In this document: in pieces, positions 23,436 through 41,572 of the stretch
Position numbering within the stretch: the first letter of the stretch is position 1
How the letters are laid out: every line of letters begins with the position of its first letter
Assembly (NCBI GenBank): GCA_020439995.1
Contig: JAGROY010000218.1
Span: 2,225 to 66,224, forward strand
Source: Verrucomicrobiia bacterium
GTDB taxonomy: Bacteria; Verrucomicrobiota; Verrucomicrobiia; Verrucomicrobiales; DEV007
Length of the DNA stretch: 64,000 bases
Direction: 5' to 3'
Program-made: the position numbers and the translations under genes
Notes under the pieces: model-generated
The model's input: the letters and a program-made list of their open reading frames with translations, nothing else
Databases searched by the model: none
Told to the model about the DNA's origin: nothing

Positions 23436-26400
23436 CTACTCCTTCCGAACGCGGTAGTAGCGATCGAAGATGTCTGGTGTCAACGTCTCATCTTCGAAGG
23501 TAGAGATGTCGCCATCAGCCTCGAAGCCATCTGTGCCCTCCGTCCAGTCAATCAAGTCTGAACTGTAATCAATCGAATAGGAGGCTCCGGATTTTGACTG
23601 CCATTTCACAGTGGCAGTGTTTGCGGTCACCCTCTCCACCTCAGTGATCTGGAACGGAACACCGCCTCCTGCGTCCAAGCCATTTTCCTTGACGTCGTTG
23701 ATTTGCTCTTCGGTCAGAGCGATGGAATAGACGCCGAAGTCGTCCAACTTTGCCTGCACGATGCTGGCATTGTTCTGCGCGCTGCCGATCCAGAGTGCAG
23801 TGAAGTCATCCGGCAGTGGACTGGTATTCACGGTCTCGTATGCGAGTGCTCCATCAATGTAGACCCTCTTGTTTTCCCCATCCTTGACGAAGGCGAAGTG
23901 GTGCCATTCGCCATCGAGAAAGTCAATGCTTGCAGCGAAAGTGCCACGCTGAGTTCCCCCGTCACAGCAACCAGCTGTGTCGAAGTAGATATTGCCGGCA
24001 GCATCCCATGGAACGTGTGCCTGCGCACCGCGTTCGCCATTATTTGATGACGGCGAAAGCGCCCAGAACGTGCTGGAGCTAACGGTGTCCGCGTTAAATT
24101 GCCAGAACACGAACGTCATCTGATTGGTAGCACCGGCCAGATTCAGGAATGAGGCGTCATCGACATGGAGAGTTCCAGTAGCGCCCTCAAAATCGATCAC
24201 CGAACCGCGCACTGGGTCATTCACATACGCCGCACCATCGTTGACTGCTTCGATGCCACTGACAATATCCACTGCCACGGAATCGTCTGCGGAATCCTCG
24301 AAATCCCAGGCAGCGAGCAATCCGCCCTCTGGCTTGGAGTTGGGATCGGTTGGGTCTGAGCCTGCGGCGACTTCCTGGCCATCATTGATAGCGTCACTGT
24401 CCGTATCTTTCTTGTTCGGATCAGTGCCGGTGTCCGTGGCGCTGACGAAAGTGCCAGTGCCTGATTCCACACCATCACTCAGGCCGTCTCCATCGGTATC
24501 TGCAGAGCGAGGGTCGGTCCCGGTGTCCGTGGCGCTCACGTAAGTTCCGGTGTCCGTTTCGACTCCGTCTTCCAGACCGTCTCCGTCAGTATCCTTATTG
24601 TTTGCCGCAGTTCCTCGATCGTATTCCTGCTTATTGCTTAGCCCGTCTCCGTCCAGGTCCAGCGCCGCATCATCGACGGTCGGATCCAGACCGTTCGTCT
24701 CTTCATAGGCGTTGGTCATGCCGTCTCCATCGGTATCCGAAGGATCTACGAACGCTCCCACAAGCTGCCATTCTTCTTCAACCAATGTCGTGGGTGCAGT
24801 CCCAAGCCCTTTGTAAACATAGACACTGACACCCCCGCCGCCAGCACGCTCGAAGAAGATAAATTCCAAATCGTGGAATCCGGCAGTGAGTTCAACCTCC
24901 ATGAAAGTATTCGCGCGCCCCCTGACACCTACAGATCCTATCGAATTACCGTCGATGAAGAGTTCGAATCCGTCGTCACTGTTGCAAACGAATGTCACGA
25001 GGCCACTTTGCTTTACCAGTATCGGCCCCTTTGCGCGGATCGCAAAATCGTCGTGATCGGCACGTCCCTCGCCACCATTGGCTTCGTCGAAAATCGGGAA
25101 CGGCTTGGAGAGTGCTTGATAGATCGGCGCTGCAGCATTATCGTCGAAGTGGATGAATTCGCTCACAATGGTAAGCGATTCCACACCGGCAGGATCGTCG
25201 AGTAGTGCCACGGCTTCAGCGACGGAATTAATCTGTGGTGCCCCCGCCGACCACACTTGTTCAACGTCGAACCCGCCCTTAGTTTGCAGTACCGATCGTG
25301 TGCTGTCTGGATCCGTCGGATCCGCCCCTCCCGCTACTTCGAATCCGTCCGCATCGCCATCGCCATCGGTGTCAAACTTGTTCGGATCGGTGCCAGGGTC
25401 GGCTGCACTTACAAAGATTCCCGTGTTCGTCTCGACATTGTCGGCGAGCCCATCACCGTCTGTGTCAGCAAGTATTGGACTGGTTCCTGTATCTGCCGCG
25501 CTGACGTAAACGCCAGTGCCTGTCTCAACGTTGTCCTGGAGGCTGTCACCATCGGTATCTTTCTTTTGAGGATCACTGCCGGCAACGAACTCGTCAACAT
25601 TCGAGACGGTGTCGCCATCTAGATCGCCCGTGGAGTCGTTGACGACCTTGTCGAGACCGTTCGCGTCTTCGTAGCTATCGGGCATACCGTCGCCATCCTG
25701 GTCGTCGAGCGCTTTTACCGAGACGCTGTCAATTTCCCAGTTAGGAATCCCAGGTCCGCGCGAGCCCTCATCAAACGCTCCGAGAAACCGGATCCGGATG
25801 GTGCCGCCCGCAGCGACGCCTCCAACCTCGGCAATACTGGTAACAAACTCCTCGTCATTGTAGCCCTCAGAGTCGCCGTTAAAACCGTCACCACCCTTCA
25901 GGGCATGGTTTCCAATGAGTCCAGAACCCGTGTAGCCGTTCTGCGTGAACGAGGTATTGGGCACGGTCGAAAATGTACCGCCATTAACGGAAACTTGAAG
26001 TGCCGCACCATCCCACAGATCTCCTTCGATGCTGTAGCGGTGAACAAACGTCACCTCAATCCCGGCAGTTGCTGCAACGGGAATTGCCGGACTTGTCAGC
26101 GTGTAAGTCGAAGGCCCACTGTCATCCCCTTCCAGCGTCCACGATCCTCTGCCGTCATCGTATTCAAACGGAATCGGTGAGTTTCCTGAGGATTCTTCCA
26201 CGAATCCTCCATCGCCCTCGTCGAAGGATTCAGAATATGGCAAGCCTGAAGGCGGAGTAATTGCCGCCTGCCAGAGGCTTTGCGCCTCGGCGTCTGTAAG
26301 CACCCGATTGAGCCAGATTGCCACTTCGTCCTGGCCTCCAGAGTGTGTGGTCGAATCTGCAGGGTCGTCCCGGCGGCCGCCAATTTTTGCCATCCCTGTA

Positions 26401-27836
26401 TCAGTGCCCCAACCGGTAACTTCCGCTACCAGGTTTTCGGTGCGATCCACACCATTCACCCAGATCTTCAAGTTTGAGGCCCGCTCTTCCCCGTCAGCAC
26501 CCTCTGTCGATGCGATCACATGGAACCAACCCGAATCCTCCTGAAGGAAGCTAAGGTCCTGGCCGCTGTTATCTTGCAGATAAAGCGTTCTCTCAGCAAA
26601 CTCACCCGTTTCGCTTGGGTCTACAGCGAGCACGAGCCCACCGTTGCCGATCACTATCTGAAAGCTCTTGGTAGGGTCTTCGAGATTGTTAGTGAACACC
26701 CGGTCACCCCCCTGTGCGCCTTGCCCGGCCTTGATGAACAATGCGACCGTCATCGCGTTCGCCCCATAATTAGTTCCATCTCCCAGAGTAATGTGCCCGG
26801 CGTTGTTGCTCAGGTGTGCGCGATTCGAATCGCCACCTACTCCTGGAACGGCAATGCCTCCAAAAACTTCAAGCGGCCCCGGAATCCCTACCATTGGGCC
26901 GTTTTCATAGTCGCCATTGTATTCGCCCGGCGCCGCAGCATTCCCTGTGCTATCTGCAGCCCCGCTTGCGGTAGTCGTCTCATTCAATTCGTAGTAGAAA
27001 GAGGGGTTCAGCTTTCTCACTGCATCCTGATAGTTCAATGGCGCAGCAGCCTGAGCAACACCACCGAGGGTGACCAAGCCGGTCTCCGATGGGGTCTTGC
27101 CTCCGACGACGGCATGTGCCCCCCAACCGCCCCAGCCACTCTGGCCAGGAGAATCAAGATCACCGTCATTGATTGCGAAGCCGATCCCGAGTGTCACGCC
27201 CTCTTCCAATGCATCTAGACTGACAACTTCGAGCGGCAAGCGGATCTCATAGGTGGTCGTCTTCGCTACTGTGTCACGAACGATAAACACCTCAGTGCCT
27301 TCTGGAGCGGCCTCGTTGTGGACAGTGAAGAAGTCCTCCCCAGCTGGCTCATCTTCTTCGATGCCAAGCAGAGCCACATTGACCAGCGCTACTTGAGAAG
27401 CGCGATCGCCATCGGCGACCATCAGCTGAATCGCGTCGCCGTTCCAGGCGCTGCCACCGCCTCCGGCGGAGTGCTCATGGTAATCATCCGTGACAACGAC
27501 ACCGAGGTAGAAGTTTTCATCGTCATAGAGCATTCGGGTTACAGAAGATTGATCGTCCGGGCCATCCCAGGTGCCACTACCATATTCATCATGGGTAACG
27601 ATTTCCTCCGGCGTCGCATTTTCAAAACCAATCCCTTTCGGAAACATGGCGAAACGCGGGTTATCAATCACATTGGCACCGCCCCATTCGGACAGGTCGC
27701 CGTCCAGCACAATCGGACTTGAAGCCTTTAGGGCCGTGTAGTTCTCCGTAGCTGGGTCCATATCGTTGGCATGAGCAACCACTCCAACCACCCCCCACGC
27801 TAGTAAAGCTGCTATAATTTTCTGTTTAGTTATCAT
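23436..27836 (-). CDS. Giant secreted multidomain protein: CBM9/DOMON-like + LamG + beta-sandwich module + TSP3 Ca-binding repeats + PA14 + TSP3 + LamG + C-terminal YYRV module
   Basis: 1466 aa.
- Signal peptide MITKQKIIAALLAWGVVGVVAHA.
- CBM9-like N-terminal domain (IVLDGDLSEWGGANVIDNPRF...YDDENFYLGVVVTDD).
- Two LamG-like blocks (...LKIWVNGVDRT...DEVAIWLNRVLTDAEAQSLW; ...WHHFAFVKDGENKRVYIDGAL...LDDFGVYSIALTEEQI).
- Two arrays of thrombospondin-type-3 Asp-rich repeats (DTDGDGLADNVETNTG..., ~25300-25700 and ~24340-24760).
- PA14-like block (FVCNSDDGFELFIDGNSIGS...FFERAGGGGVSVYVYKG). Confidence 0.85.
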   Translation of the reverse strand: MITKQKIIAALLAWGVVGVVAHANDMDPATENYTALKASSPIVLDGDLSEWGGANVIDNPRFAMFPKGIGFENATPEEIVTHDEYGSGTWDGPDDQSSVTRMLYDDENFYLGVVVTDDYHEHSAGGGGSAWNGDAIQLMVADGDRASQVALVNVALLGIEEDEPAGEDFFTVHNEAAPEGTEVFIVRDTVAKTTTYEIRLPLEVVSLDALEEGVTLGIGFAINDGDLDSPGQSGWGGWGAHAVVGGKTPSETGLVTLGGVAQAAAPLNYQDAVRKLNPSFYYELNETTTASGAADSTGNAAAPGEYNGDYENGPMVGIPGPLEVFGGIAVPGVGGDSNRAHLSNNAGHITLGDGTNYGANAMTVALFIKAGQGAQGGDRVFTNNLEDPTKSFQIVIGNGGLVLAVDPSETGEFAERTLYLQDNSGQDLSFLQEDSGWFHVIASTEGADGEERASNLKIWVNGVDRTENLVAEVTGWGTDTGMAKIGGRRDDPADSTTHSGGQDEVAIWLNRVLTDAEAQSLWQAAITPPSGLPYSESFDEGDGGFVEESSGNSPIPFEYDDGRGSWTLEGDDSGPSTYTLTSPAIPVAATAGIEVTFVHRYSIEGDLWDGAALQVSVNGGTFSTVPNTSFTQNGYTGSGLIGNHALKGGDGFNGDSEGYNDEEFVTSIAEVGGVAAGGTIRIRFLGAFDEGSRGPGIPNWEIDSVSVKALDDQDGDGMPDSYEDANGLDKVVNDSTGDLDGDTVSNVDEFVAGSDPQKKDTDGDSLQDNVETGTGVYVSAADTGTSPILADTDGDGLADNVETNTGIFVSAADPGTDPNKFDTDGDGDADGFEVAGGADPTDPDSTRSVLQTKGGFDVEQVWSAGAPQINSVAEAVALLDDPAGVESLTIVSEFIHFDDNAAAPIYQALSKPFPIFDEANGGEGRADHDDFAIRAKGPILVKQSGLVTFVCNSDDGFELFIDGNSIGSVGVRGRANTFMEVELTAGFHDLEFIFFERAGGGGVSVYVYKGLGTAPTTLVEEEWQLVGAFVDPSDTDGDGMTNAYEETNGLDPTVDDAALDLDGDGLSNKQEYDRGTAANNKDTDGDGLEDGVETDTGTYVSATDTGTDPRSADTDGDGLSDGVESGTGTFVSATDTGTDPNKKDTDSDAINDGQEVAAGSDPTDPNSKPEGGLLAAWDFEDSADDSVAVDIVSGIEAVNDGAAYVNDPVRGSVIDFEGATGTLHVDDASFLNLAGATNQMTFVFWQFNADTVSSSTFWALSPSSNNGERGAQAHVPWDAAGNIYFDTAGCCDGGTQRGTFAASIDFLDGEWHHFAFVKDGENKRVYIDGALAYETVNTSPLPDDFTALWIGSAQNNASIVQAKLDDFGVYSIALTEEQINDVKENGLDAGGGVPFQITEVERVTANTATVKWQSKSGASYSIDYSSDLIDWTEGTDGFEADGDISTFEDETLTPDIFDRYYRVRKE

Positions 27837-27851
27837 TGTTTTAAAAAAGGT

Positions 27852-28268
27852 TTAAGCGATGAGGATTGCAACACGGGCGAGATCTGACTGATGCCAACAA
27901 CTAGAAGAGAACGAGATCATGATTCGGACGCTACCGGATGGAGCAGCGTCGAGCTGTTGTCCACAAACGGGATCAGATAGGCTCCGGGCCCAAGTCCATC
28001 CAATAGTGCCCGCCAGATCGGGCGCCTGCTTGATCACGCAGGTTTCGTTTTCACTCGAAGTGAAACTTCCTGCTCCCCCGCAGGCAGCAATCCCCAACTC
28101 GTTGAGCGCCACGCAGCACCCCACGGCATTTTCACCTGCAAATCCGCTATCAGTAAGATCTTCACCCCCGATCGGCGTACGGCAGGCCATCAGACCCGAA
28201 CGGCCCATGCTTGCCGTGAACGACATCAATAATACGAAAGCAAATGAATAGAACATCTTCTCACACAT
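27852..28268 (-). CDS. Small Cys-rich secreted protein, hypothetical
   Basis: ATG at 28268 gives MCEKMFYSFAFVLLMSFTASMG (signal-like). There are seven further Cys in ~115 mature residues. The stop is 15 nt upstream of the 1466-aa gene start. Alternative starts exist at 28280 (TTG) and 28256 (ATG). No homology is recognisable, so coding status is moderately uncertain. Confidence 0.45.
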   Translation of the reverse strand: MCEKMFYSFAFVLLMSFTASMGRSGLMACRTPIGGEDLTDSGFAGENAVGCCVALNELGIAACGGAGSFTSSENETCVIKQAPDLAGTIGWTWARSLSDPVCGQQLDAAPSGSVRIMISFSSSCWHQSDLARVAILIA

Positions 28269-28395
28269 AGGCACAATCAAGCGTAGAAGGGGGTTCTATC
28301 TTGGCTGTTCGATAGATGACCTCACCGAAACATTCAACCCTAAAGATGCAATAAAGTTGCCAAGTTTAACTGGAACCTCGAGCTAGATCGCCATT

Positions 28396-28448
28396 CCCCC
28401 CCGTTTCAGAGCGCTCAATCGCATAGCGCTGCCCCCATTTCAGAGGGC
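28396..28448. repeat. Two direct copies of CCCCC(G/A)TTTCAGAG(C/G)GC, about 36 nt apart, flanking AGCGCT-N9-AGCGCT
   Basis: Read from sequence: 28396..28414 cccccccgtttcagagcgc, and 28432..28448 cccccatttcagagggc. They lie in the spacer between the 2.3-kaa gene stop and the Cys-rich ORF. Confidence 0.4.
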
Positions 28449-28503: not shown

Positions 28504-31500
28504 CTACGCACGACGCACCCGCGCGTCAAGAACGCAGCCAAACAGCAATGTCACTCCAACTAACATTCCCACTACATTCCAGAGATTCGGCTCCTCAGTG
28601 CGGGTGATGGAAAAGTTGAGCTCCAATGGATCACCACCAGCGACTTGCACACTGCGGGCGAATGTGTAGATGCGGCCGTGTTCCGGCAATTGCGACTGGA
28701 TAGCTTGTGAGGCGGGCTCTGCGGCGTCCTGCTGGCTGACGATGCGATCGGCCATGCGCTTGAGGGCGCTGGTGACCTGGGCGGAGTTGCCGGCGAGCAA
28801 TTGATCCACCTGAGAGGGATCGTAGTTCAGTGTTCCGCGCATGAGCGGGTTCTGCGATGCCGATTGCTCAAACTGCTCGTTGCGCTGGAATCCGAAGTCT
28901 TCGACGCTGAAGCCGTTGTTCAGATAGGAGCGCTGCCGGATGGTATTCAATCCGACCACGGCCTGCGAATTCTGCAGCTCCCGCAGTTGCACCCGCGCAT
29001 CCTCGTTGGATGCATCATCGAGCGCGCTCGACTCCGATGCCATCTGCAGGACCGAGCGTGCTTTCTCCTGCTCGCCCTTCTTCAGGTAGGTGTTGGCACG
29101 ATTCAGCAGGTCAATCGCTTCCTTCTCCTGAACGACTTTGCGACTGCGGCGGCCTTCTTCGTACTGGGAAAGGGTGAATACCTGAATACCGGCCTGTCCT
29201 TCGACTTCCTGCAGCGATCCGTTCTTGAAATCAAACTCGAAACCTTTGGGAACGACAACGCGCCAGGAAATATTCTCCACTGGCACACCAAGTTCCGGCC
29301 CGACGAGCTTCCACTGATCGGCTGCACCACCGAGAGCCATCGACCATGTCATCCGGATATTTGCAGTCGGCGAGTCCTCACGCGCTTTCACATGAAAGCG
29401 ATAGGCGTCACCTTCGACGACGGTGTTGACGCTCTGGTCATTGACAAAAACGCTGAACAATCGCGCACCGATCGGCAACTTCATCTCCAGGGTGCTTTGC
29501 TCAACGACTTCTACGTCGAACTTCGCTTCCGTGACCGCGCTGCCGCTGGTTCCCAGCACCGTCGTGATTCGCCCCTGCTGCACACGCAGCTTCAGCGAGT
29601 CGGCAACCGCGTGGCGGCGGACACTGAGTCCTAGCGGAGCAGCAGGCTCCGAAACGCGCGTAACCAATGCAGGCACGCTCGTATCGGAAGGAGTGTGCAG
29701 CTCTTCTGGCACTGCGATCCAATCGACCGCCTGCCAGCCACCAGGAAATGCCGGGGCCAGCAAATCCAGTCGACCGGAAACGCGCACCGCCACATAGGCA
29801 GTCGATTGCCGCACTCCGTCGAGCACCGGCACCGCGATGCTTTCCGTACCATTGCCAGCGTGCTGGGATGCCGTCTGGTATTCGATCTGCACATCGGTCT
29901 CACCCAGAACACTGCGGCGGAACTGCACGTCCCACGCATTGGCAACACCTGAGACTTTGACGATTTCACTAACATCCTTCCCACTGGCACGCACGCTATT
30001 CTGTTCCTCTGCGGTCAGACCGGGCAATGTGAGCCGCACGGTTTTGACCCCAGCATTCTCGATGACGTATCGGATCGCCAGTCGCGTCTGCGTCACACCT
30101 TCGCGCAATGTCACTTCTTGCAACGAACGTGCCGTGACCCAGGAGTCGAGCTTTTCCACATCCAGCACGACTTGCCAGTCTGCCTGCAGCAATCGAAACG
30201 CCAGCGTTCCCGGCTGGTTGGCGGAAAGCTCACGACTGTCCAGCTGCGAGGCGTTCTGGCGACTCTCTGGACGGATGCGAATTCCACGCTCTGGTGTCAC
30301 TGTTAGTTGGCCAGCCTGACGCGTGGCCTCGCGCACTTGAACGCGAGGAACCGGCCAGTTGTCCTGCGCTCCCGGCGATGGCGCTGACAGCGAAATGGCG
30401 AACGTCTGGCGGCCGAGTGTGCGTCCGTTGAGATGCAGAGTGGCGACCCTTTGTCCGCCATCTTCAGTGGCCTCGGTCCAGTGACTCAATGCGCTGCCGC
30501 TCACACCTTCGATGTCGAATCCATCTGGCAACGGCAGCGTCAAGCGGAACAATCCGGCACGCGTAATGTCCACATCCAGATCAATCGCGAGCACCAGCCG
30601 TTCCTCCCCCAGCGACAAAACCTGACGCCCTTCCACCCGCACTTCCGAGTTCACCGGTGCCACGGTCAGCGCCACCGCACCGCCCTCTTCACCGTGGCGG
30701 TAGACGTTGCGCAGCGCCACCTGATCACCTGCGCCACGCTTGTCGTTGCCGAGGCTCAATGAAAAGTCGGTGATGTTCACCGGGGACAATGTCCCCGGCA
30801 CCACTGCTTCCGGTTGCGCGTCAGTGGTGAACGCCAGCCCTAGTTTCCCCACCTGACTGGCCGCGCCATTGACCGTCAGCGCCTGAAGATTCACATTGAC
30901 GGGCAAGGTTCCAGTGGTCATCTGGCTTTCAATGAGCAGCTGAAATGCGGAACTCTGCGCGGGCTCGATATCGACCGTCAACGCCCGGCTGTCCGGATCG
31001 AACCGCCACTGCCCTACGGGGCCATTCACGGAACTTACGGTAAAGCCAGTGGGCACACTCAGACTCATTCGCGAAACCTTGCCCTGCGACGGACGCACAA
31101 CAACGTGGTGGCGCGCATCGACAACGCCAGGCCCGCAGATAAAGGCATTCTGCGTCTCGGCAAAGTACCGCGTTTCCTCGGCATCGATATCACGACCTGC
31201 CAGTTGAAAAGCGATGCCCGCAGAGCGCCCTGGGCGCAGCACCAGCCGTGCAGCACTTGCCCCCTCCCCAGCTTCGATCGGTTCGATGCGAACGGCCTCA
31301 GTGGAGCTGAACCGCCAGCCTGCCTGTGCCACTTTCACTTCCACCGACTGCACCGCTGCCGCGCCAGTCGGCAGAGTCAGGCCTTGCGCGAGATCCACCG
31401 GCAGCTCGTAGGTTGCGATTCCCGTGAATGTTCCCGCACTCTCTGGCACTAACAGATACACCGCGACACCACTCACTTCGCGCTTGCGCAACTGCAGCCC

Positions 31501-34500: not shown

Positions 34501-35493
34501 CCGCCATTCGTTCGATGTCAGCACTGCTGCAGCGAGTGGAATTTCAAAGGTGAACTCGCCAGCGGAGGCAAACGCCAACTCGTAGGCGTCACCGTTCAGC
34601 GCGATGTGGAATCCTTCGAAGTTCAGGACTTCTGTGAGAGCCGCGCGACCGCTGAGCACTCGCACGCGACCACCTGACTCAGGAGTCACAATCGCTTTGC
34701 CCTTCAAGGTGAACAACGATGATTTCAATGCTGTATCGACAGTGCCTTCGAGTGATACATCGACCAGTTCCACTGGCGCGCGCATCGTTCCACTGCGCAG
34801 CACCGACAGGATAAGGGTGGCATCGCCAGTGGATTGAAACTGCAACTTGCCGTCGCCTGCATCGGCATTGGCAACATGAGCAACCGGGAAAAGCCCATCG
34901 GCGCGGACGGCTTTCACTTCAACCGCGAGATCGCTCTGCACATTGATCGCCGACGAATAGGCGACAGCCTCGCCAGCACCCAGCATGAGAACGTTCGTCT
35001 CTGCGGCAGGCACTTCGATCTTGTTCTCTGTGGCAACATTGAATGCGACATCGCCAGTGGTGCCGGGCTTCAATCGCACTTCCAGGAATCGAGCGTCGCC
35101 TTCCCGACGCTCGGCCCATGCCGTAATCGCTTCACCAGTGACATTGCTCACGACTCCGGAACCGGTGAGCGTGAACAGAAGCACCTCGGGCTTTCCCTGG
35201 AGAATGGAACACGTCACCGCAATGCCCTGCTGCACAGAGCTGGCATCCACACGCACAGTTGTTTCCGCATGGGCTTTGTAGAGGGCCTTCGTCTTCGGTT
35301 GTACACCCGTGGCCTCGATGATGAGCTTCCCGCCGCTCTCGCCACCCACAGTGGCGGTAACACTGGCTTCGTCCGCCTCGGAAGTGGAACCATCATCGTT
35401 CTGGGCATAGATCAGACTCCCTGACATTGCCACCACCCACAGCGATAGCAGTATCGCGATCATCATTCTCGTCGTTGTTCGTTTTGTATTCAT
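28504..35493 (-). CDS. Giant polytopic membrane protein (~2329 aa): signal/anchor + ~1050-aa extracytoplasmic arm + 6-TM hub + ~1030-aa extracytoplasmic arm + terminal TM
   Basis: The track ORF reaches 35598. I start at ATG 35493 (MNTKRTTTRMMIAILLSLWVVAMSGSLIYAQ).
- The hub is encoded at ~31680..32280 and has six TM helices: LLPTIVLISFGVLVAFLL, ILGFLVLVLAMGGAGLLAF, WTGVVEVIAGLVLLMIGL, WALAGLLAVSAGLLT, AAWFLAWMGLVLLLVVIQ, TATAAIVIAGLLALGF. The loops obey the positive-inside rule.
- A last TM (LWNVVGMLVGVTLLFGCVL) sits at ~28534..28590.
- Both arms contain recurring strand-rich modules ending in a pattern like (L/V)x(L/I)P-x-G-(F/Y)-x-(V/I)-x-x-V-x-G-x-x-x-x-x-W, e.g. DWTLRIPDGYSVVEVTGAEVADYAL and FRLTLPLPDGFDIEGVSGSALSHWTE.
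- I do not recognise the family. Confidence 0.8.
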   Translation of the reverse strand: MNTKRTTTRMMIAILLSLWVVAMSGSLIYAQNDDGSTSEADEASVTATVGGESGGKLIIEATGVQPKTKALYKAHAETTVRVDASSVQQGIAVTCSILQGKPEVLLFTLTGSGVVSNVTGEAITAWAERREGDARFLEVRLKPGTTGDVAFNVATENKIEVPAAETNVLMLGAGEAVAYSSAINVQSDLAVEVKAVRADGLFPVAHVANADAGDGKLQFQSTGDATLILSVLRSGTMRAPVELVDVSLEGTVDTALKSSLFTLKGKAIVTPESGGRVRVLSGRAALTEVLNFEGFHIALNGDAYELAFASAGEFTFEIPLAAAVLTSNEWRGVDFQVGAGTIVPVAVAGLGEQVEFDKKSAVVPTLRDGKWQGFLPANGSCRLAWKPLGESDAGKLFFSTEGRIDARVEAGLLRQVADITLTVLQGELPEVTLTAEGPGEIVSVEGTNVTGWEIADAADGARTISIRLSRPLEKAGRLIVRSQTPLGEFPARVAALRLTPEGSVRHSGYVRLSNGGAVRIDLAGVQGMSQTAPEQFPGEALQAARQVLAYRFPGAAYAFEVLADQILPEVGVSQVTVYQVTETDRILSSQIELDIREAPLRDWTLRIPDGYSVVEVTGAEVADYALDSLVEAGARNLKVLFRNEVSGRQLIQLRLEQNTPAAAGLQVLPPLAFPGAKSVRGQIGVAPAPGFRAVPDPAAITNLSELPLTSFQNRVNGLQLAYRVREADWTASVTMEALGQNVQTDVFHLYLLKEGIVYGSIVVDYFIVGSPVSQYRLNVPTDIGNLAVDGSDVQGWRREADEVIVDLHQPVLGQSTVLVTFELPMNADGGVLPLGGVQPTGVQGERGYIQVVSPSHVKYEVTTASPGLLKLDAIELPAETRLLSSAPTLAAYQYSARPFTLSMNVAWFERGETVGQIVEFARLDSQIARDGEIITTARYFVKTRQGQTLRVRLPDGVRLWDAKVNGQTVSVRIETEANTANGASGSYLLIPISSSAGTAADPGSAVEVAIRIGHKSSDNEMPVLLSPAVDAPGLIAEWHVKADEGRRLLPDESAGLSIGRSPLPKSGYTALTGRRLLPTIVLISFGVLVAFLLQRNARPNGVRHILGFLVLVLAMGGAGLLAFDQLDRPVVVASEFNVSFTATGADQVLTVPLHNVPLWKALVSWTGVVEVIAGLVLLMIGLKSGRRASACCNGWALAGLLAVSAGLLTQPGGAAWFLAWMGLVLLLVVIQQVRTWPRLPKDPTPPEAPDAPSGTTATAAIVIAGLLALGFGTTTEQAHAADSRGADSIVQQWEINDGRLTATATITLTAREGDTFEILRSPATLTSFEGQGLQLRKREVSGVAVYLLVPESAGTFTGIATYELPVDLAQGLTLPTGAAAVQSVEVKVAQAGWRFSSTEAVRIEPIEAGEGASAARLVLRPGRSAGIAFQLAGRDIDAEETRYFAETQNAFICGPGVVDARHHVVVRPSQGKVSRMSLSVPTGFTVSSVNGPVGQWRFDPDSRALTVDIEPAQSSAFQLLIESQMTTGTLPVNVNLQALTVNGAASQVGKLGLAFTTDAQPEAVVPGTLSPVNITDFSLSLGNDKRGAGDQVALRNVYRHGEEGGAVALTVAPVNSEVRVEGRQVLSLGEERLVLAIDLDVDITRAGLFRLTLPLPDGFDIEGVSGSALSHWTEATEDGGQRVATLHLNGRTLGRQTFAISLSAPSPGAQDNWPVPRVQVREATRQAGQLTVTPERGIRIRPESRQNASQLDSRELSANQPGTLAFRLLQADWQVVLDVEKLDSWVTARSLQEVTLREGVTQTRLAIRYVIENAGVKTVRLTLPGLTAEEQNSVRASGKDVSEIVKVSGVANAWDVQFRRSVLGETDVQIEYQTASQHAGNGTESIAVPVLDGVRQSTAYVAVRVSGRLDLLAPAFPGGWQAVDWIAVPEELHTPSDTSVPALVTRVSEPAAPLGLSVRRHAVADSLKLRVQQGRITTVLGTSGSAVTEAKFDVEVVEQSTLEMKLPIGARLFSVFVNDQSVNTVVEGDAYRFHVKAREDSPTANIRMTWSMALGGAADQWKLVGPELGVPVENISWRVVVPKGFEFDFKNGSLQEVEGQAGIQVFTLSQYEEGRRSRKVVQEKEAIDLLNRANTYLKKGEQEKARSVLQMASESSALDDASNEDARVQLRELQNSQAVVGLNTIRQRSYLNNGFSVEDFGFQRNEQFEQSASQNPLMRGTLNYDPSQVDQLLAGNSAQVTSALKRMADRIVSQQDAAEPASQAIQSQLPEHGRIYTFARSVQVAGGDPLELNFSITRTEEPNLWNVVGMLVGVTLLFGCVLDARVRRA

Positions 35494-35625
35494 AACATTC
35501 GTATAAAGTTCTTTAAAATCTGGAGTGCGCTGGCTCGACAGCGCTCTTTCGTGACTGCACGCGTTTCGGTTAGAAAAAGCTCCGTCAAGCCGGAGCACTC
35601 CAGAGCCTGGGCACTCCTTCAGTCA

Positions 35626-38600
35626 TCACTTTGCCATTTGCGCGTCACGGATCATTCCGATCAGCTGGTTCACTCTCACATTGTCACCATAGGCACTGCG
35701 CAGCCCCGGTGCCAGACTACTCAACGCATCCAGATCCACATTCGATGCCTCGGGCCCACCGCGCAGGTATTCTCCAAGCATCGCCGCGACTCCGGCGAGC
35801 TGGATCGATGGCTTTGCGACTTCGATCGTTGGCGCATTCTCTTCGTAGGGGATGATCCAACTGTGCTCCACCATCCGCCCGGAAGCGACATCCTGGAAGC
35901 GCACGCGCACTTCGCCTACATCGCCGGAGCCATCGGCCATCGGCTCGATCTGGTAGACGGCGACTCCCGTTTCCTCGGCTGCCATTTCTGCAGCGTCTAC
36001 TGCGTCATTGCGGAAATCTTCTTTTTTCAGTCGATGTTTCTCATAGCCGATCAGGCGATAAGCGCCGACCCGCTGGGGGTTGAAGACGACCTGGACTTTC
36101 ACGTTCTTCGCCGCTGGCCGCAGTGCGCCTGCCAGCTGCGAAGCAAACCCGGAGTCCGCCTGCTCCGGGGCATCGAGAAAGTAGTATCGTCCGTCACCCT
36201 TACGGGTCAGCGCTTCCAGCACCTCATCATTCAACCCATTCGCGCCGACACCACAGGCATCAAACGCGATTCCCTTCTGCCGCAACTCCACCACCCGCGT
36301 CGCAAGTTCTTCCGGATCTGCATTGCCCAGATTTGCTGCCCCATCGGTCATCAGCACGATGCGATTGACCGCGCCGTCGTCGAACTGACGCTGAGCCACT
36401 TCTGCTGCCAGGCGCATTGCCTCTTCCAGATTCGTGCCGCCTTCGGACGGCGCATCATCCACTGCGGCGAGCAATTTGGCACCGTCACTGCCACTCACAC
36501 GATCGGCCAGCAAGCGTGGTGTGCGCGCAAATCCTAACAACGACACCTGATCGTTCGGCTGCAACTGCGCTGCCAGCACCTCCATTGCCCGGCGCACCGA
36601 CGCCTCACGGTCTTCGCGCTGCATCGATCCCGAATTGTCCAGCAGGATGGTTAACCGCAATGGCTGACCACCCCCGCGCCCAACCGCTGCCGTGCGCATC
36701 GCAATCCGCAATAGATTGCGCTGCTGCATGAAAGGATGCGCGCACTGCTCGGTGCGACACATCACCTTCTCCCCCGTCGCTGGCGCAGGATCGCCATAGT
36801 CCAGAGCATTCACAAATTCCTCCACCCGCACCTTCTCCGGCTCCGGCCACTCCCCTTTCATCAGCGCCGACTGCGCAAGCTTGAAAGCGACATCACTTAC
36901 GTTCAAGGAGAAGGTGGAGAAGGCGTTAGTGGACGCGAGTTCTTCGGTGGTGGTGACCGGGGCAAACTCTGGACTTATTTCGCCAACATCGTCAAGATTA
37001 TCGCGTTCCTTGAGAGCCTTCAATCTCCCGTTGGCAGCGCGTAATTGTATTCTCGTTTGCTTCAGATAGTCCGCAGCATATTCGTTGAGCCTCTCTCTAG
37101 TTGCGGCCATTCCTTCGGTCACTTGTTGGGTCGCCTGAGGTTGCGGCACCCGTTCTTGATACAATCTGATGTCGTTCTGTAAGAACGGATTTGATTGAGG
37201 CGCAACCTCCAGTACCTTTTCGATTAAGGCATCGCCACGAAGAGCCTCCAGTGTTTCCAATTGAGCAGCTAGGTTTTCTACATCAGCTCGCAGTCGATCT
37301 TCGGTGGCATCGGCAGGTAGATTGGTTGGATCCAATGCAGCCATCACCATTTCTTCCCCCAAAGCTCGTAGATTGCGATCACTCTTCTCAACCTCCGCTC
37401 TCCACATTTTTTCCGTTGTATTCCTGTATTCTGGAATCAACGACTCTCTAAGCGCACGCACCGCAGGATCTGCCGAACTATCGGGAAGTAACCGTAACAC
37501 GGTTGCGTATTTTTCAAGCGCAGATTGCCAGTCTTGATTCAGGATGGCTTCTTTTGCTGCCAATTCAAGCGTCCTTGCCTCTCTCAGCCTCTGTTCGCTA
37601 GTGCGAGATTCTGGCTGAGACTTGGCATGGTCACTATTCTCGCGAAATACCTCATAGTTCGAAACTACTGTACCCGGAATACTTCCATTTGTTTGAGCAC
37701 TATCCCGCTCTTGACGTGCAAGATGAAGTCGTACCATCTCTCGGTCGAGCTTTGTATTTGATTTGAAATTTGCCTCCAGCGCCTCTTTGAATCTATCCAA
37801 CTTTATCTTTATGTCTGCCTTTCCATCGACCACTGTCTCAAGCTCCCTCTCCAAATTAGACACTTCCTGCTCGGCCTGCAGTCGGCTCATTACGGTACCT
37901 GCAGCAAACTGCCTTGATCCCGTTTCCGTCGTATCGGAATCGACCACATTGGAACTAAGATCGACGATGTCGAATTCCTGTTGCAGCGCCTCCTTCTCCT
38001 TTCCGGTGACATCTACGCGCTCTTCCAGCTCTTCCAGTTCAGCTAGCATTTCCTGGGATGGGGCTTCAGGCCCGTCCACAGCAGCGGTAGCGACCGCACT
38101 TAACATGTCGTCGTGGAGGAGCTTAGCTGTCTCATGAGCACGCTTCGCTTCAACATATCGCGTGAATGCTTTTCGTTCTTCTTTTGGGTCACGCTCTTGC
38201 CATTTCTTCGCTTCGTCTCCTTCCGATGAATTTAATGGGAATGCTGCATTCGTTTCTGCGAGCTCAAGAGCATCCTTGCCGACTTCCCCCCTCGCCTCCT
38301 CAAGCACACTCTGTTGCTCGCCGAATCGTGGTTCGGTCTCTGGCTGAAGGATTGCTGCGCCGTCTGGAGCATTGCCAACGCCAGTATCGAAATCACCCGT
38401 GACGCTCCCCCCTCGACCAAAAGCGGATAGTTTGGCTTTCAGCTGCTCCAGGCTCCCAGACTCATCGGCAACGAGAGACTCTGCGATACGTCCTCCCGCA
38501 AGATCCACCGGCTCTCCAGCGACTTCCTCTCCAAGAGCGGCACCGTCGGGAGCTGCGCCCAGGCCAGCTGAATCAAAGTTCGTCGTGGCGTTGTCGATCA

Positions 38601-40983
38601 ATCCGTCAAGGTTATCGATCGCGCTGAAACCAGCGCCAAAACTCATTGTCCCGGCATTCTTTTCACGCAGAGTAATCCCATCACCCGCCCGGGCTGGCTC
38701 GGCCGAAGGCATCACTTCCGCCCCTTCGTTGCCAAATTGTTCAGGACTACGGTCGACGGTCGTGCCAAACAGATCCAGATCTGCGGCAGATCCACTATCG
38801 GCACGTGCCAAATCCTCAACGACTGCCCCGTCATCAAAGGCAACCGCAGGGCCGTTCTCGTTGATTACCTGGTCGGCAGCCTTCAGCTTCTTCCCAAGTT
38901 GAACAACTTCACCCAGCTTCGCCTCAGCTACGATGCCCGAGACAGGAGGCTCAGCTGCCGCAAAAAGCGAGCCTGAGGCTCTGCTCAACGAACGAGCTTC
39001 TTCGCCATCCGCCTCTGCACTGACAGAACTGGCTCGCGGCTGGCTCATCCGTTGAGATTCGGCACCACCACCAGCCATCCCGCCATTCAGCCCGTCCTTA
39101 CTGATTGCAGCAACTGCCGGCTCCGATTCATTCGGGAAAGTCACGCTGGATAGGGATGTGCTCGCGGAACGGAAGGGATAGCGTTGATACTCGCCTGACT
39201 GCGGCTGCGTGGTAGCTTCCGTCAACTCTTGGACGCCTTCGACTTCAGGCGTATACCATGCAAGGTCCGACTTCTCGCCCTCTACTTGCAGTTCAGCCCC
39301 CTTCAACATCTCGCGATCATTCACGAACCCTTCAAACTCGATCACCTCGGGCGCAGCTGCGAGATCAATTGAATAGCCGTCTTGCTTTTCAGCTGCCAGA
39401 CCGGGCCCGTTTCCCAATTCGGTGCCATTTGCTCTCGTCGAATTAGCGGGCGCCAGAACTTCGTAACCCAATTCGACTTTCCCAGCCGTAGAAAACGGTT
39501 CGCTGAATGCATCTCTGGGCACCACTGGCTTTCCGGCGAGCTCAAGGGAATCGACGACGTCGCCAGGCTCGTTAATCCCATACTCCCCTGGTTCAACAAA
39601 GTCGCGCGTGAGTTCCACGCTCGTCTCCTGGCCCGAACGGGTCAGCGTACTTTGCTCAACGAGTTCCCGCTCTGATCTCGCGAAAAAGAACTTGCCCGTA
39701 TTCGCTGGATCACTGCTTTGCTGTCCTGCCGACCGGTCTAAGTGATCGCCGTCCTTATCGTTCTGGGCGACTTGCAATTCGGGGATCCCGGGCTGATCGA
39801 ATTCCCTCTCTGACATTGATCCCAACTGTGCTCCCCCAAGACCTTGGGCCACATCGACGTCGCCTGATTCCTCCACTGGCTCCACCTCTGCGAGCTTGCT
39901 TTCTCCTCCAGCTGGCGACGCATTCTTCGCATCAATGTCCGATAATCCATCGGAGACGCTCTCGTACTCGACAGCGGCATTGGCCACCAATAGGTCATCC
40001 ACACTTTCACCCGTAGTCTGCTCCATTGGCGCTGGCAACACCGGTAATCCAAGCGACACGTCTGCTGCTGCAACTTGTTTGTCGTCCTGCTCGATCGCTG
40101 GCCCAGTCGTTACAGTCGGCTGATCGGCTATCGACTCGGGCATTGCTGGCTGCGATTGTGCGGGAACCAGCGCAAGCTCGCCGCGAACGACCTCATCCGA
40201 TGTCTTGACCGAACCATCAATGTTCATACGCCCCAGCTCGCTGGTCCGGCCACTAGCCTGAAGAGTTGGTCGCTCGGTTTGAGTGATGAGGCTTTCTGTA
40301 TCACCGAGGCTTGTTGCATCCGCGAGCTGCCTGAGTGTTTTGCGGTAGCGGCCCGAACCTTCGGTAGCGGCCGGTGCTGCTGGCGCTTCCGCCAGACCAG
40401 ACGAAGGTGCAGGTCGATACGCCCATTCATCCGTTGTAGCAAAGGTCGTTGTGTCCGGCTCCATCGGCATCACGGAATCGATCGCTGCGGCCTCCTTCGT
40501 CGCTATGAACCTGCTCTGCAAGATAGAACTTCGCGACTGCACAAGTGAAACGACTACGGCGCACACAGCCACCAGCGCAGCGGCAACACCTGGAACACAC
40601 GCTGCCCAGATTTTCCAACTTGCTCCCTTTCGCTCTGGCTCGATGACAGTCACTTCGGCTGCGGCCTCCTCGTCTCCACTGTCGGCAGATTTCAGCCCCA
40701 AGGTTGCCAGCAGTCGCCCCCGGCGCTCGGGGGCGAGACGCCATTGATCATCATCACTCACTGGCTTGCGGGCATAGCTTTCTCCCACGAGCCCGTGCAC
40801 CGCTTCGATTCGGCGCTTGAATACAGCCAGCTCGGGATTGGCTTCCAGCATGCGGTCCAGCTCCGCCCTTTCGAAGTCGGATGCCTCGCCGACGACGGAG
40901 GCAACGATGCGCGCCTCCAGATCGGGATCAATCCACGATTGGATGCCGTCGTCGCCTTGGCCTGGGTTATCGGATGAGTTCAT
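35626..40983 (-). CDS. Giant single-pass anti-sigma-factor-like protein with a C-terminal YfbK-type VWA module
   Basis: About 1785 aa from ATG 40983. The track start at 41037 would overlap the sigma gene by 17 nt.
- The N-terminal cytoplasmic segment has the anti-sigma pattern IVASVVGEASDFERAELDRMLEANPELAVFKRRIEAV.
- One TM (WKIWAACVPGVAAALVAVCAVVVSLV, ~40540..40617).
- A long acidic, low-complexity region, then coiled-coil/TPR-like helices.
- A vWA-N-like segment (STFSLNVSDVAFKLAQSALMKGEWPEPEKVRVEEFVNALDY).
- A VWA domain with an intact MIDAS motif (DNSGS at 36625..36639, plus LMTDGAAN).
- A DUF3520-like C-terminus (YRLIGYEKHRL...VAVYQIEP). Confidence 0.85.
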   Translation of the reverse strand: MNSSDNPGQGDDGIQSWIDPDLEARIVASVVGEASDFERAELDRMLEANPELAVFKRRIEAVHGLVGESYARKPVSDDDQWRLAPERRGRLLATLGLKSADSGDEEAAAEVTVIEPERKGASWKIWAACVPGVAAALVAVCAVVVSLVQSRSSILQSRFIATKEAAAIDSVMPMEPDTTTFATTDEWAYRPAPSSGLAEAPAAPAATEGSGRYRKTLRQLADATSLGDTESLITQTERPTLQASGRTSELGRMNIDGSVKTSDEVVRGELALVPAQSQPAMPESIADQPTVTTGPAIEQDDKQVAAADVSLGLPVLPAPMEQTTGESVDDLLVANAAVEYESVSDGLSDIDAKNASPAGGESKLAEVEPVEESGDVDVAQGLGGAQLGSMSEREFDQPGIPELQVAQNDKDGDHLDRSAGQQSSDPANTGKFFFARSERELVEQSTLTRSGQETSVELTRDFVEPGEYGINEPGDVVDSLELAGKPVVPRDAFSEPFSTAGKVELGYEVLAPANSTRANGTELGNGPGLAAEKQDGYSIDLAAAPEVIEFEGFVNDREMLKGAELQVEGEKSDLAWYTPEVEGVQELTEATTQPQSGEYQRYPFRSASTSLSSVTFPNESEPAVAAISKDGLNGGMAGGGAESQRMSQPRASSVSAEADGEEARSLSRASGSLFAAAEPPVSGIVAEAKLGEVVQLGKKLKAADQVINENGPAVAFDDGAVVEDLARADSGSAADLDLFGTTVDRSPEQFGNEGAEVMPSAEPARAGDGITLREKNAGTMSFGAGFSAIDNLDGLIDNATTNFDSAGLGAAPDGAALGEEVAGEPVDLAGGRIAESLVADESGSLEQLKAKLSAFGRGGSVTGDFDTGVGNAPDGAAILQPETEPRFGEQQSVLEEARGEVGKDALELAETNAAFPLNSSEGDEAKKWQERDPKEERKAFTRYVEAKRAHETAKLLHDDMLSAVATAAVDGPEAPSQEMLAELEELEERVDVTGKEKEALQQEFDIVDLSSNVVDSDTTETGSRQFAAGTVMSRLQAEQEVSNLERELETVVDGKADIKIKLDRFKEALEANFKSNTKLDREMVRLHLARQERDSAQTNGSIPGTVVSNYEVFRENSDHAKSQPESRTSEQRLREARTLELAAKEAILNQDWQSALEKYATVLRLLPDSSADPAVRALRESLIPEYRNTTEKMWRAEVEKSDRNLRALGEEMVMAALDPTNLPADATEDRLRADVENLAAQLETLEALRGDALIEKVLEVAPQSNPFLQNDIRLYQERVPQPQATQQVTEGMAATRERLNEYAADYLKQTRIQLRAANGRLKALKERDNLDDVGEISPEFAPVTTTEELASTNAFSTFSLNVSDVAFKLAQSALMKGEWPEPEKVRVEEFVNALDYGDPAPATGEKVMCRTEQCAHPFMQQRNLLRIAMRTAAVGRGGGQPLRLTILLDNSGSMQREDREASVRRAMEVLAAQLQPNDQVSLLGFARTPRLLADRVSGSDGAKLLAAVDDAPSEGGTNLEEAMRLAAEVAQRQFDDGAVNRIVLMTDGAANLGNADPEELATRVVELRQKGIAFDACGVGANGLNDEVLEALTRKGDGRYYFLDAPEQADSGFASQLAGALRPAAKNVKVQVVFNPQRVGAYRLIGYEKHRLKKEDFRNDAVDAAEMAAEETGVAVYQIEPMADGSGDVGEVRVRFQDVASGRMVEHSWIIPYEENAPTIEVAKPSIQLAGVAAMLGEYLRGGPEASNVDLDALSSLAPGLRSAYGDNVRVNQLIGMIRDAQMAK

Positions 40984-41020
40984 GGTCAGTTGGGGAAAAT
41001 AAAAAATTTGAAAAGGAGGA

Positions 41021-41572
41021 TCAGCAGTCAGCGCCATCGATTCCGGCGCGGCTCAGCGACAGCGCGAGCGACTTGAGCGCATGATGAAGGCGGTAGCCGA
41101 CGTTGCTCACCGTCATGCCGACCGCCTCCGAGATTTCTTTGTAGGATTGCCCTTCGAGGTATTTGCGGCGAACGAGTTCGCCGTCTGGATGCTCCAGCTC
41201 ATCGATGAGCAGGCGCACCATGCCGACCGCCTCCATCCGCCCGAGTTCCCGGTCTGGCGTGTCTTTCTCGTCTGCGCGATCGGCCACGCCGTCGTCGGTT
41301 TCGAACTCGCGTTTGTTGTCGCGCAGGTGGGACAGGGCTAAATTGCGCACCGCCCTGTAAATCCAAGGCCTCGGTTGCTCGACATCGTCCCAGTGCTTGT
41401 GCAACCGCAGGAACCCTTCCTGCACAAGCTCTTCCGCGACGTTACGGCGGCGAACGATCCCGCACGCAAAGCGCACGAGAGCGGCCTCCTCAGCCTCGAA
41501 CAACTCGATCAGGCTCAGTCGGGGTTCAGATGGCTTGGAATCACTCTCGTCGCCGTGCGAGCCTTTAAGCAT
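41021..41572 (-). CDS. ECF-subfamily RNA polymerase sigma-70 factor
   Basis: Start at ATG 41572 (MLKGSHGDES...); the track ORF reaches 41677. Region 2: AEELVQEGFLRLHKHWDDVEQPRPWIYRAVRNLALSHLR. Region 4 HTH: QSYKEISEAVGMTVSNVGYRLHHALKSL. It is immediately followed by the anti-sigma-like gene. Confidence 0.88.
   Translation of the reverse strand: MLKGSHGDESDSKPSEPRLSLIELFEAEEAALVRFACGIVRRRNVAEELVQEGFLRLHKHWDDVEQPRPWIYRAVRNLALSHLRDNKREFETDDGVADRADEKDTPDRELGRMEAVGMVRLLIDELEHPDGELVRRKYLEGQSYKEISEAVGMTVSNVGYRLHHALKSLALSLSRAGIDGADC

Follow-up and report, generated by a model that had tools for sequence, protein, structure and literature searches.

A conserved three-gene ECF sigma factor unit encoding a VWA anti-sigma-like protein and a giant twin-arm membrane protein in Verrucomicrobiota and Planctomycetota

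Introduction

Extracytoplasmic function (ECF) sigma factors constitute a major route of bacterial signalling, with 150-plus groups for which the input and output are mostly unknown. What such a factor controls, and what it responds to, are the questions raised by a locus within a 64,000-nt stretch of contig JAGROY010000218.1, from a Verrucomicrobiia bacterium of the DEV007 lineage (the window, here meaning this whole stretch). An ECF sigma factor gene heads five consecutive minus-strand genes, being followed by those for an anti-sigma-like protein ending in a VWA module, a very large membrane protein (the giant), a small Cys-rich protein, and an exoprotein with LamG, TSP3 and PA14 domains. The original prediction, made from the sequence of the window, joined all five into a candidate undescribed system for surface sensing and adhesion. 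This work finds that the conserved unit is three genes (sigma factor, VWA anti-sigma and giant), rather than five, because the order of this trio is kept in relatives, in which the two downstream genes have no counterpart. The small Cys-rich open reading frame (ORF) and the LamG/TSP3/PA14 gene are unrelated neighbours, and not part of the module.

Results

Conservation of the sigma factor, anti-sigma and giant genes

All five minus-strand ORFs of the original prediction were confirmed, together with their domains, by hidden Markov model searches of the encoded proteins (Table 1). Their start codons match the NCBI calls (MCB1098234-MCB1098238, KDN22_21865-21875), with that of the anti-sigma gene also fitting the alignment of homologues, and the junction lengths of 37, 132, 235 and 15 nt, from the sigma factor to the exoprotein, follow from the coordinates.

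The limits of the unit were sought among relatives. A scan for the giant's family, taking one genome per species, returned at least 437 confirmed stretches, of which a single gene can yield up to two, search patterns being placed in both of its halves. The proteins of the window were run by tblastn against 85 related loci. Besides two likely mis-binned metagenome-assembled genomes (MAGs), the best 80 loci of the scan belong to Verrucomicrobiota and Planctomycetota, and include the cultured carriers Allorhodopirellula solitaria, Oceaniferula spumae, Rhodopirellula maiorica and two Novipirellula species. The sigma factor, the anti-sigma N-terminus, the VWA module and the giant were in the same order, on one strand, in 50 of the 51 loci with more than 7.5 kb of flanking sequence, and the VWA module was directly upstream of the giant in 66 of the 67 with more than 2 kb. 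Hence the synteny of the trio across both phyla, proposed by the original prediction as a check, was upheld.

The same arrangement extends to five distant loci (a Planctomycetaceae MAG, Opitutaceae EW11, Haloferula sargassicola and two others), all of which carry the trio: a gene for an ECF sigma factor of 184-197 aa, then one for a vWF_A/VWA/YfbK_C protein of 902-1211 aa, lie upstream of the giant and on its strand. The remaining flanking genes all differ from locus to locus, and no other conserved gene was found in the neighbourhood of the trio in these five loci. Nearer to the window, the trio is repeated in a relative whose giant is 80% identical; its flanks contain a divergent TPR gene and convergent pseudopilin genes, but neither LamG genes nor a small Cys-rich ORF. 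Across the 85 related loci, the small Cys-rich ORF had no tblastn match and the LamG/TSP3/PA14 exoprotein no counterpart, relatives with an 80-86% identical giant included; the LamG query gave no more than two matches, both of them short (55-81 aa, at 43-47% identity) and on the opposite strand, one in L008 and one in L033. Therefore the five-gene, 18-kb cluster of the original prediction is upheld for its first three members, and unsupported for its last two, which also have no promoter motif.

The gap between the anti-sigma gene and the giant has a median of ~125 nt across the related loci, and the sigma and anti-sigma genes overlap by 4 nt in L001 and L005. Neither a conserved motif nor a sigma-70-like promoter was detected in the spacer between anti-sigma and giant. 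Given this synteny, the one promoter upstream of the sigma factor (described below), and the rarity of terminator-like hairpins in the spacer (5 of 55 related loci), the trio very probably constitutes a single autoregulated ECF signalling operon, extending from 41685 to 28504 on the minus strand. The only convincing terminator had been placed after the last of the five genes; the hairpin there, at 23357..23326, is indeed the strongest terminator-like site, but a weaker hairpin with a T-run also occurs at 35596..35579, between anti-sigma and giant. The latter was rejected as a conserved attenuator, a comparable feature being present in only the five loci just mentioned. In the window's organism, its effect could be that less giant is made than sigma factor and anti-sigma. 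Two spacers are unusual in other ways: that of L001, the Planctomycetaceae MAG, contains an IS200/IS605-type Y1 transposase gene (9120..9575), and that of L086 is ~1300 nt, a length similar to that of L001, with which it shares the hairpin CCTGGGGCGATGCCCCAGG. Scans of the window for Rfam families, tRNAs and tandem repeats found nothing.

Table 1. Coordinates of the features of the locus (window numbering; all on the minus strand)
Feature	Position	Strand	Basis or remark
Predicted ECF-type bipartite promoter, AGTTTCTAATGATCCGTGCGCGCAGGTGTCAGTATC	41650..41685	-	-35-like TTTCTAATGA, -10-like GGTGTCAG
ECF sigma factor, 183 aa	41021..41572	-	Sigma70_r2 + Sigma70_r4_2; NCBI MCB1098238
Anti-sigma-like protein: predicted cytoplasmic N-terminal domain, aa 17-95	40699..40935	-	conserved helical block
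Anti-sigma-like protein: single transmembrane helix, aa 130-148	40540..40596	-	Kyte-Doolittle 19-residue mean 2.63; sole hydrophobic segment
Anti-sigma-like protein: hypervariable acidic linker, ~1,200 aa (aa 149-1345)	36949..40539	-	unalignable between homologues
Anti-sigma-like protein: vWF_A (PF12450) - VWA - YfbK_C (PF12034) module and stop codon	35626..36948	-	Pfam
Weaker hairpin, six G+C-rich pairs, then TTTTTCT	35579..35596	-	anti-sigma/giant spacer
Giant twin-arm inner-membrane protein (predicted), 2329 aa	28504..35493	-	NCBI start 35466, 2320 aa
Giant: arm 1, aa 29-1075, all-beta	32269..35409	-	after signal peptide or anchor at aa 10-28
Giant: central cluster of six hydrophobic segments, aa 1076-1272	31678..32268	-	hydropathy, flanking charges
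Giant: arm 2, aa 1273-2303, beta-sandwich array then helical region	28585..31677	-	AlphaFold2, homology to arm 1
Giant: C-terminal transmembrane anchor, aa 2304-2322	28528..28584	-	then basic tail DARVRRA
Small Cys-rich ORF, 138 aa, 8 Cys, hydrophobic N-terminus	27852..28268	-	no Pfam/NCBIfam family; KDN22_21870, hypothetical
CBM9-like/LamG_3/TSP3_bac/PA14 exoprotein, 1466 aa	23436..27836	-	Pfam
Terminator-like hairpin and T-run after the LamG/PA14 gene	23316..23357	-	14-pair stem, 8 G-C (hairpin at 23357..23326)

A predicted autoregulatory promoter

The sigma factor has no Pfam domains other than Sigma70_r2 (E 2.5e-13) and Sigma70_r4_2 (E 3.3e-10), and passes the NCBIfam model TIGR02937 (sigma70-ECF), scoring 79.3 bits where 42.9 are required. 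In related loci, the first gene of the operon encodes an orthologue of 182-197 aa. Enrichment of k-mers in the 330 nt around the sigma factor start of 55 loci identified two motifs, TTTCTAAGAA and CGTGTCTT. The gap from TAAGRA to GTGTC is invariant, at 13 nt, in 28 related loci and the window, resulting in the consensus TTTCTAAGRA-N13-CGTGTCTT. A position weight matrix (PWM) built from the 28 sites upstream of orthologous sigma factor genes located a site 75-118 nt upstream of the sigma factor in nearly all of 54 loci, from both phyla, with the planctomycete variants CGGGTCTT and CGAGTCTT among them, and, one marginal match aside, found none in front of the giant or in any other part of the 85 loci. 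The window contains a single site, at 41685..41650, which scores 21.3, the next best on either strand of the 64 kb scoring 9.2; the best scores upstream of the giant, the small ORF, the LamG/PA14 gene and the LamG gene that precedes the sigma factor were -17, -7.6, -13 and -7.2, respectively. The two closest relatives, L087 and L088, show a phylogenetic footprint, in that both elements are retained and the spacer between them is scrambled. This ECF-type sequence motif indicates a promoter, predicted to be autoregulatory, that serves the trio.

The start of the sigma factor gene can be placed by the same motif: an ATG at 41677 falls within the -35 element, and therefore the 218-aa ORF beginning there is a start artefact, the sigma factor instead starting at 41572. 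The over-long start (41573..41677) is also used in P0129, a metagenome gene call of 218 aa from the same 90% cluster. Among the three closest relatives, the ~75-nt 5' leader from the -10 element to the ATG at 41572 is more conserved than the promoter spacer.

The exact promoter pattern was also scanned in metagenome contigs, giving 22 matches (L089-L110). None had a gene for a sigma factor, VWA protein or giant nearby, and most fell within ORFs and on contigs of low GC content; hence they were judged to be chance occurrences. About 10 of the 54 genome loci seem, by eye, to carry the exact pattern, and the metagenome scan returned no copy from an orthologous operon.

The VWA anti-sigma-like protein

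The second gene (35626..40983, minus strand) encodes a protein of 1785 aa, predicted from its hydropathy and flanking charges to have a cytoplasmic N-terminus and an extracytoplasmic VWA module. In an alignment of six orthologues, the block at aa 17-95 was the sole conserved part upstream of the VWA module, with the pattern LEARVVAWVLGEASDFE..EL..L....PELA.FKRR.E. This resembles the usual helix pattern of class I anti-sigma domains, without the zinc ligands; the zinc-binding family zf-HC2 matched the N-terminus of one of seven members, at E 0.35. Beyond the transmembrane helix, the linker is 18% acidic and composed of 74% disorder-promoting residues, with a C-terminal third rich in charged, helix-type sequence. 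Its length ranges from about 130 to 1,200 aa across loci, such that the whole protein measures ~703-1569 aa in relatives, against 1785 here. No significant Pfam family was found at E<=10 in aa 1-1366, which include the whole linker, the single sub-threshold match being SAS-6_C_CC_2 (E 0.089).

The C-terminal module has the YfbK-type order of PF12450, VWA and PF12034, with E values for vWF_A, VWA and YfbK_C of 6e-12, 2e-17 and 6e-27, all above the Pfam cut-offs. Its metal-ion-dependent adhesion site (MIDAS) is intact, as the residues D1449-x-S1451-x-S1453 (DNSGS, 1449-1453), T1517 and D1547 are invariant in six homologues. With one hydrophobic segment in the protein, this agrees with the MIDAS-intact VWA module on a single-pass protein that the original prediction had described. 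This module is the best-conserved part of the system, its identity across the 85 loci being mostly 53-65% (44-95% overall), compared with the lower 41-47% of the giant's arms. Conservation of this degree favours a ligand that is itself conserved over one from the environment, which would vary. A search of the PDB by sequence returned two matches only, the uncharacterised protein 8s05_A and the VWA domain of ITIH4.

The giant twin-arm membrane protein

The third gene encodes a protein with eight hydrophobic segments, for which no family was found in Pfam or NCBIfam at default thresholds. More than 120 full-length homologues, of 2117-2446 aa and 37-80% identity, likewise match no Pfam family. 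All are named hypothetical, save for P0007, a "glycosyltransferase family 87 protein", a name that no Pfam match backs. In a library of 1.84 billion cluster representatives (clusters at 50% identity), the family accounts for 433 clusters at E<=1e-30 and 1718 at E<=1e-3. Neither the arms nor the transmembrane (TM) cluster had a significant match when each was compared with Pfam at E<=10, no consistent family emerged from 20 members at E<=5, and a profile search of the PDB found no sequence relative. The methyltransferase family NodS appeared in 10 of the 20 members (best E 0.0023), the window's own protein not being one of them, and was treated as noise.

The giant is an internal duplication, each copy forming a beta-sandwich arm of ~1,000 aa, as judged from the homology of arm 1 to arm 2 (22.8% identity over 574 aa, E 1e-23) and from AlphaFold2 models. 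These models were computed from 32-sequence alignments and are almost wholly beta, with mean predicted local distance difference test scores of 82.6 for arm 1, which has ~70 strands, and 83.4 for arm 2. The latter includes, near its membrane-proximal end, a conserved helical region of ~150 aa with SNEDARVQLR..L..QAVVGLNT.RQR, in which SNEDARVQLR is among the most conserved motifs of the giant. The last of the six central hydrophobic segments precedes AHA|AD, a signal-peptide-like cleavage site. From the hydropathy and flanking charges, both arms are predicted to be periplasmic, with seven or eight TM helices as their anchor; hence the original prediction's adhesin-like giant is contradicted by the prediction of an inner-membrane protein. 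The arms are well conserved throughout, and column identity is at its minimum (0.41-0.45) in the TM cluster; therefore the periplasmic parts appear to be the functional ones.

In L088 (6231..13276), the giant is represented by two gene calls, of 1257 and 1091 aa, which overlap by 4 nt, with the break exactly in front of the second signal-peptide-like segment. Either the split is genuine, which would fit the giant having arisen when two paralogues fused, or it reflects a frameshift in a contig of low coverage, whose name is tagged "2x". About ten further representatives, of 1090-1160 aa, match arm 2 only.

Genes outside the conserved unit

The small Cys-rich ORF recurs at >=90% identity in just three other short metagenome contigs. 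The LamG/TSP3/PA14 exoprotein has several counterparts in kind within the window: another LamG/TSP3 gene is upstream of the sigma factor (42004..45222, minus strand), and several further large LamG/TSP3/PA14/CotH/LTD/F5_F8 exoproteins are encoded on both strands. The proteins of 42004..45222 and 23436..27836 have in common a C-terminal region, ..W.S..GA.Y.I......W.E......G..T.F.D......YYRV, which may be a common sorting or anchoring domain of the organism's exoproteins. The intervals 45552..49379, 49500..50255 and 56611..62184 are dense in other large secreted proteins, including a CotH kinase-like protein that also carries lamin-tail and CHB_HEX_C domains, a PEP-CTERM protein whose weak match falls slightly short of the Pfam gathering threshold, and a PA14/F5_F8_type_C protein of 1857 aa. 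The ECF promoter motif accompanies none of them. That large LamG/TSP3/PA14 exoprotein genes stand beside a regulator in Verrucomicrobia is thus no evidence of a regulon.

Four ORFs of 428-657 aa, within 12831..16468, 21472..22758 and 51289..52884, had no significant Pfam family. Sub-threshold matches, to MgtE_N and DUF7368, were found only for 12831..14804, which overlaps 14801..16468 by 4 nt, and none for the other three.

Discussion

Taken together, these results are best explained by an operon for envelope signalling that regulates itself and has the giant both as its dedicated output and, probably, as the docking partner of the VWA module, a composite proposal for which confidence is evenly balanced. 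In this proposal, the N-terminal domain of the anti-sigma would hold the sigma factor at the membrane. Between the VWA head and the membrane lie hundreds of residues that are disordered and not conserved, and a conformational signal could not be expected to pass along them; hence the state of its ligand would be read out through regulated proteolysis of the exposed tether, or through tension upon it, with either freeing the sigma factor. Once free, the sigma factor would transcribe its own operon, which would make the giant a dedicated local output, and it is likely that the giant is the main output of this sigma factor. The conserved periplasmic arms would be the most likely docking partner of the VWA module's MIDAS face, such that the module would report on, and restore, the state of the scaffold, in the manner of the FecA/SusC-like transducers and of RseB guarding RseA. 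Direct docking of the VWA module on the giant, as a separate step, is tentative, and given slightly less than even credence. It is favoured by the near-universal adjacency of the two genes, by the VWA module being the most conserved part of the system, and by the lack of any other conserved neighbour in the loci compared. A still broader view is that the trio is a circuit for the surveillance of envelope architecture common to Verrucomicrobiota and Planctomycetota, with the VWA head docking through its MIDAS onto the arms of the giant. Contact that is lost, stretched or occupied would expose the disordered tether to proteolysis or tension, resulting in the sigma factor being released and the scaffold resynthesised. 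This fullest version is speculative, and on present evidence rather unlikely to be correct throughout.

Several observations weigh against the proposal of an autoregulated operon with a docking giant. L053 (1..16894), the sole exception among the 51 loci, has the giant alone, without sigma factor or anti-sigma: the genes upstream of it are all divergent, neither a sigma nor a VWA gene occurs within 10 kb, and the 1-kb spacer upstream of the giant lacks the promoter motif. Within the window, the weak hairpin and T-run lie between the anti-sigma gene and the giant, and the promoter copy scores lower than most others, the median being 35. The metagenome scan, taken as a test of the regulon, was uninformative, providing chance matches only. 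The assignment of the N-terminus as an anti-sigma domain is weak, depending on its position, its conservation, and a profile search of the PDB in which the first match, the anti-sigma-K RskA (4nqw_B), was sub-threshold at E 0.15. Furthermore, the unconstrained length of the linker across loci counts against docking of the VWA module on the giant.

This last point is shared with a rival explanation that keeps the operon and its autoregulation, but denies the giant any signalling role: it would be an effector made on demand, with the VWA module sensing something else in a metal-dependent manner, whether a polymer of the envelope, a protein that is secreted or sits in the outer membrane, or a ligand from outside the cell. 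A linker that varies so widely imposes no fixed geometry relative to the giant, vWF_A-VWA-YfbK_C proteins also exist without a sigma factor (the Pfam family being named after E. coli YfbK), and sigV-rsiV-oatA is a known operon of sigma factor, anti-sigma and pure output gene. The same anti-sigma type is moreover reported in the sigma factor groups ECF289 and ECF226, the latter including Acidobacteria; the survey's context summary for ECF289 gives two enzymes as the sole conserved neighbours, and that for ECF226 reports no conserved context beyond the anti-sigma (PMC7826278). If the absence of the giant from these groups is real, then the VWA sensor does not need it in general. However, the context in this survey is listed by Pfam domain (PMC7826278), which leaves the absence unproven, and it was probably for this reason that the giant, having no Pfam family, was left out. 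A pure effector also sits uneasily with the finding that the VWA gene adjoins the giant in 66 of 67 loci from two phyla, and with the unusual conservation of the VWA module, which suggests the ligand is itself conserved in these lineages. Around the trio in the five distant loci, no other conserved gene was found. Hence this explanation retains an appreciable chance of being correct, at roughly one part in three of the credence available.

Two other explanations differ in the extent of the unit. The five-gene system of the original prediction, in which the VWA module binds the TSP3/LamG/PA14 exoprotein or a surface, and the sigma factor drives adhesin-like genes, draws on the five genes being on one strand with no strong terminator before 23357..23326, making read-through into the two downstream genes possible, and on TSP3, PA14 and LamG domains being typical of adhesins and carbohydrate binders. 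It is nevertheless very improbable, as the two downstream genes have no homologue at that position in the 85 loci, even in relatives with 80-86% identity, and no ECF motif precedes either of them or the upstream LamG gene; similar exoprotein genes are scattered over the window on both strands, and the giant is predicted to be periplasmic, rather than on the cell surface. The exoprotein being outside the conserved unit, its proposed role as ligand or target of the VWA module finds no support. At the other extreme, the giant might be a housekeeping envelope protein that is expressed independently, and only happens to adjoin an ECF pair. The lone giant of L053 would fit this, as would the spacers of up to several hundred nt in some loci, and the IS200-type transposase between the genes in L001. 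Yet order and strand are kept in 50 of 51 loci from two phyla, between unrelated flanks on both sides, which is hard to achieve without selection, and the spacer from which the giant would be expressed yielded neither a conserved motif nor a promoter of sigma-70 type. Adjacency without a functional link is therefore highly unlikely.

For an anti-sigma type that has been catalogued and left unstudied, that with VWA and DUF3520, the preferred reading of an autoregulated operon adds a conserved promoter and a conserved operon partner. This partner represents a large unannotated family (433 clusters at 50% identity), and the two phyla in which it occurs are noted for their unusual envelopes. Were the surveillance circuit to prove true, the input of ECF sigma factors would gain a mechanism that is new, and a 2,300-aa family found without annotation in hundreds of species would have its first function. 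The cultured carriers open several questions to experiment: the input of a MIDAS anti-sigma, signalling down a disordered tether of about a thousand residues, and the purpose of a twin-arm scaffold.

Comparison with known systems

The rpoE-rseA-rseB operon of E. coli sigma-E has the same autoregulated order of sigma factor, single-pass anti-sigma and periplasmic protein. In this system, RseB binds the periplasmic part of RseA and gates its proteolysis. However, RseB is small and soluble, and the periplasmic domain of RseA is short and has no VWA, whereas the third protein here is polytopic and of 2.3 kaa; the operon is hence a model for the giant's proposed role as guard or partner purely by analogy. 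In FecI-FecR-FecA, and in the ECF/anti-sigma/SusC-like systems of Bacteroides, the regulated envelope protein is also the sensor partner of the anti-sigma's periplasmic domain. By Pfam, the module described here has no FecR domain, TonB-dependent transducer, Plug or beta-barrel, and the giant is predicted to be in the inner membrane, unlike FecA in the outer. As the original prediction had stated, no MoxR, DUF58 or TonB-dependent receptor was found among the large ORFs scanned in the window, and the flanks of the five distant loci contain no conserved TonB-dependent receptor. One Plug/TonB_dep_Rec gene was seen at the far edge of L006, several genes upstream of the sigma factor, and is not repeated in any other locus.

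The Bat/aerotolerance cluster (MoxR, DUF58, the VWA proteins BatA and BatB, and BatD) and the vWA-MoxR conflict systems resemble the module in encoding a membrane-anchored VWA protein beside a membrane protein rich in beta-sandwiches, but the Bat cluster has no sigma factor. BatA scores only E 4e-4 and 19.5 bits, against a cut-off of 380 bits, BatD gave no match even at lax thresholds, and neither MoxR nor DUF58 occurs in the listed flank genes of six related loci. A reading of the locus as a defence system was rejected, as PADLOC had no match for any of the five proteins and there is no MoxR.

Outside bacterial signalling, the intact MIDAS (DxSxS...T...D) is a likeness to the integrin alpha I-domain and the ITIH VWA domain, which bind their ligands through an acidic residue that completes the coordination of the metal. 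The bacterial module differs in having its own PF12450 and PF12034 domains, and in being tethered to an anti-sigma. The arms have likenesses of a comparable kind: Foldseek matched both to the luminal domain of ribophorin I/OST1, integrin alpha legs and the MG arrays of alpha2-macroglobulin, with a probability of 1.0, the top match of arm 2 being ribophorin I (E 9e-12). These are all strings of beta-sandwich domains held at a membrane; CD109/TEP and mastigoneme were also among the matches. With TM-scores of 0.1-0.3 (<=0.31 for ribophorin I) and identities of 7-12%, the resemblance of the modelled arms is one of fold class, and not of family. Identification of the giant as Ribophorin_I was rejected, there being no Pfam match at E<=10, nor at E<=5 in 20 members, as was its identification as an alpha2-macroglobulin or thioester protein, with no A2M Pfam match, no CxEQ motif, and 6 Cys in the protein.

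The architecture of the sigma factor and anti-sigma pair is itself catalogued. Groups ECF226 and ECF289 both pair an ECF sigma factor with a putative anti-sigma at position +1, which has one TM helix, DUF3520 (now YfbK_C) and VWA (Casas-Pastor et al. 2021, PMC7826278). Acidobacteria account for 56% of ECF226, Planctomycetes for 33% and Verrucomicrobia for 11% (Casas-Pastor et al. 2021, PMC7826278; bioRxiv 10.1101/2019.12.11.873521), and ECF289 is from Proteobacteria, with the predicted promoter CCCAAGGA-Xn-CGTCTxA (PMC7826278). The survey's descriptions of the two groups mention no studied member (PMC7826278), and no functional study of YfbK, DUF3520, ECF226, ECF289 or a VWA anti-sigma was found in the literature. 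Going by these descriptions, the anti-sigma in the window has the same architecture (+1, one TM helix, YfbK_C and VWA), the window's source, a Verrucomicrobiae MAG, is within the reported taxonomic range of ECF226, and the ECF289 promoter resembles the motif found here. Hence the system is not undescribed in full, as the original prediction had supposed, its sigma/anti-sigma pair having the architecture catalogued for ECF226 and ECF289. Rather, what is new, relative to the survey's descriptions of these groups, is the conserved promoter upstream of the pair, and the giant as the conserved gene at +2.

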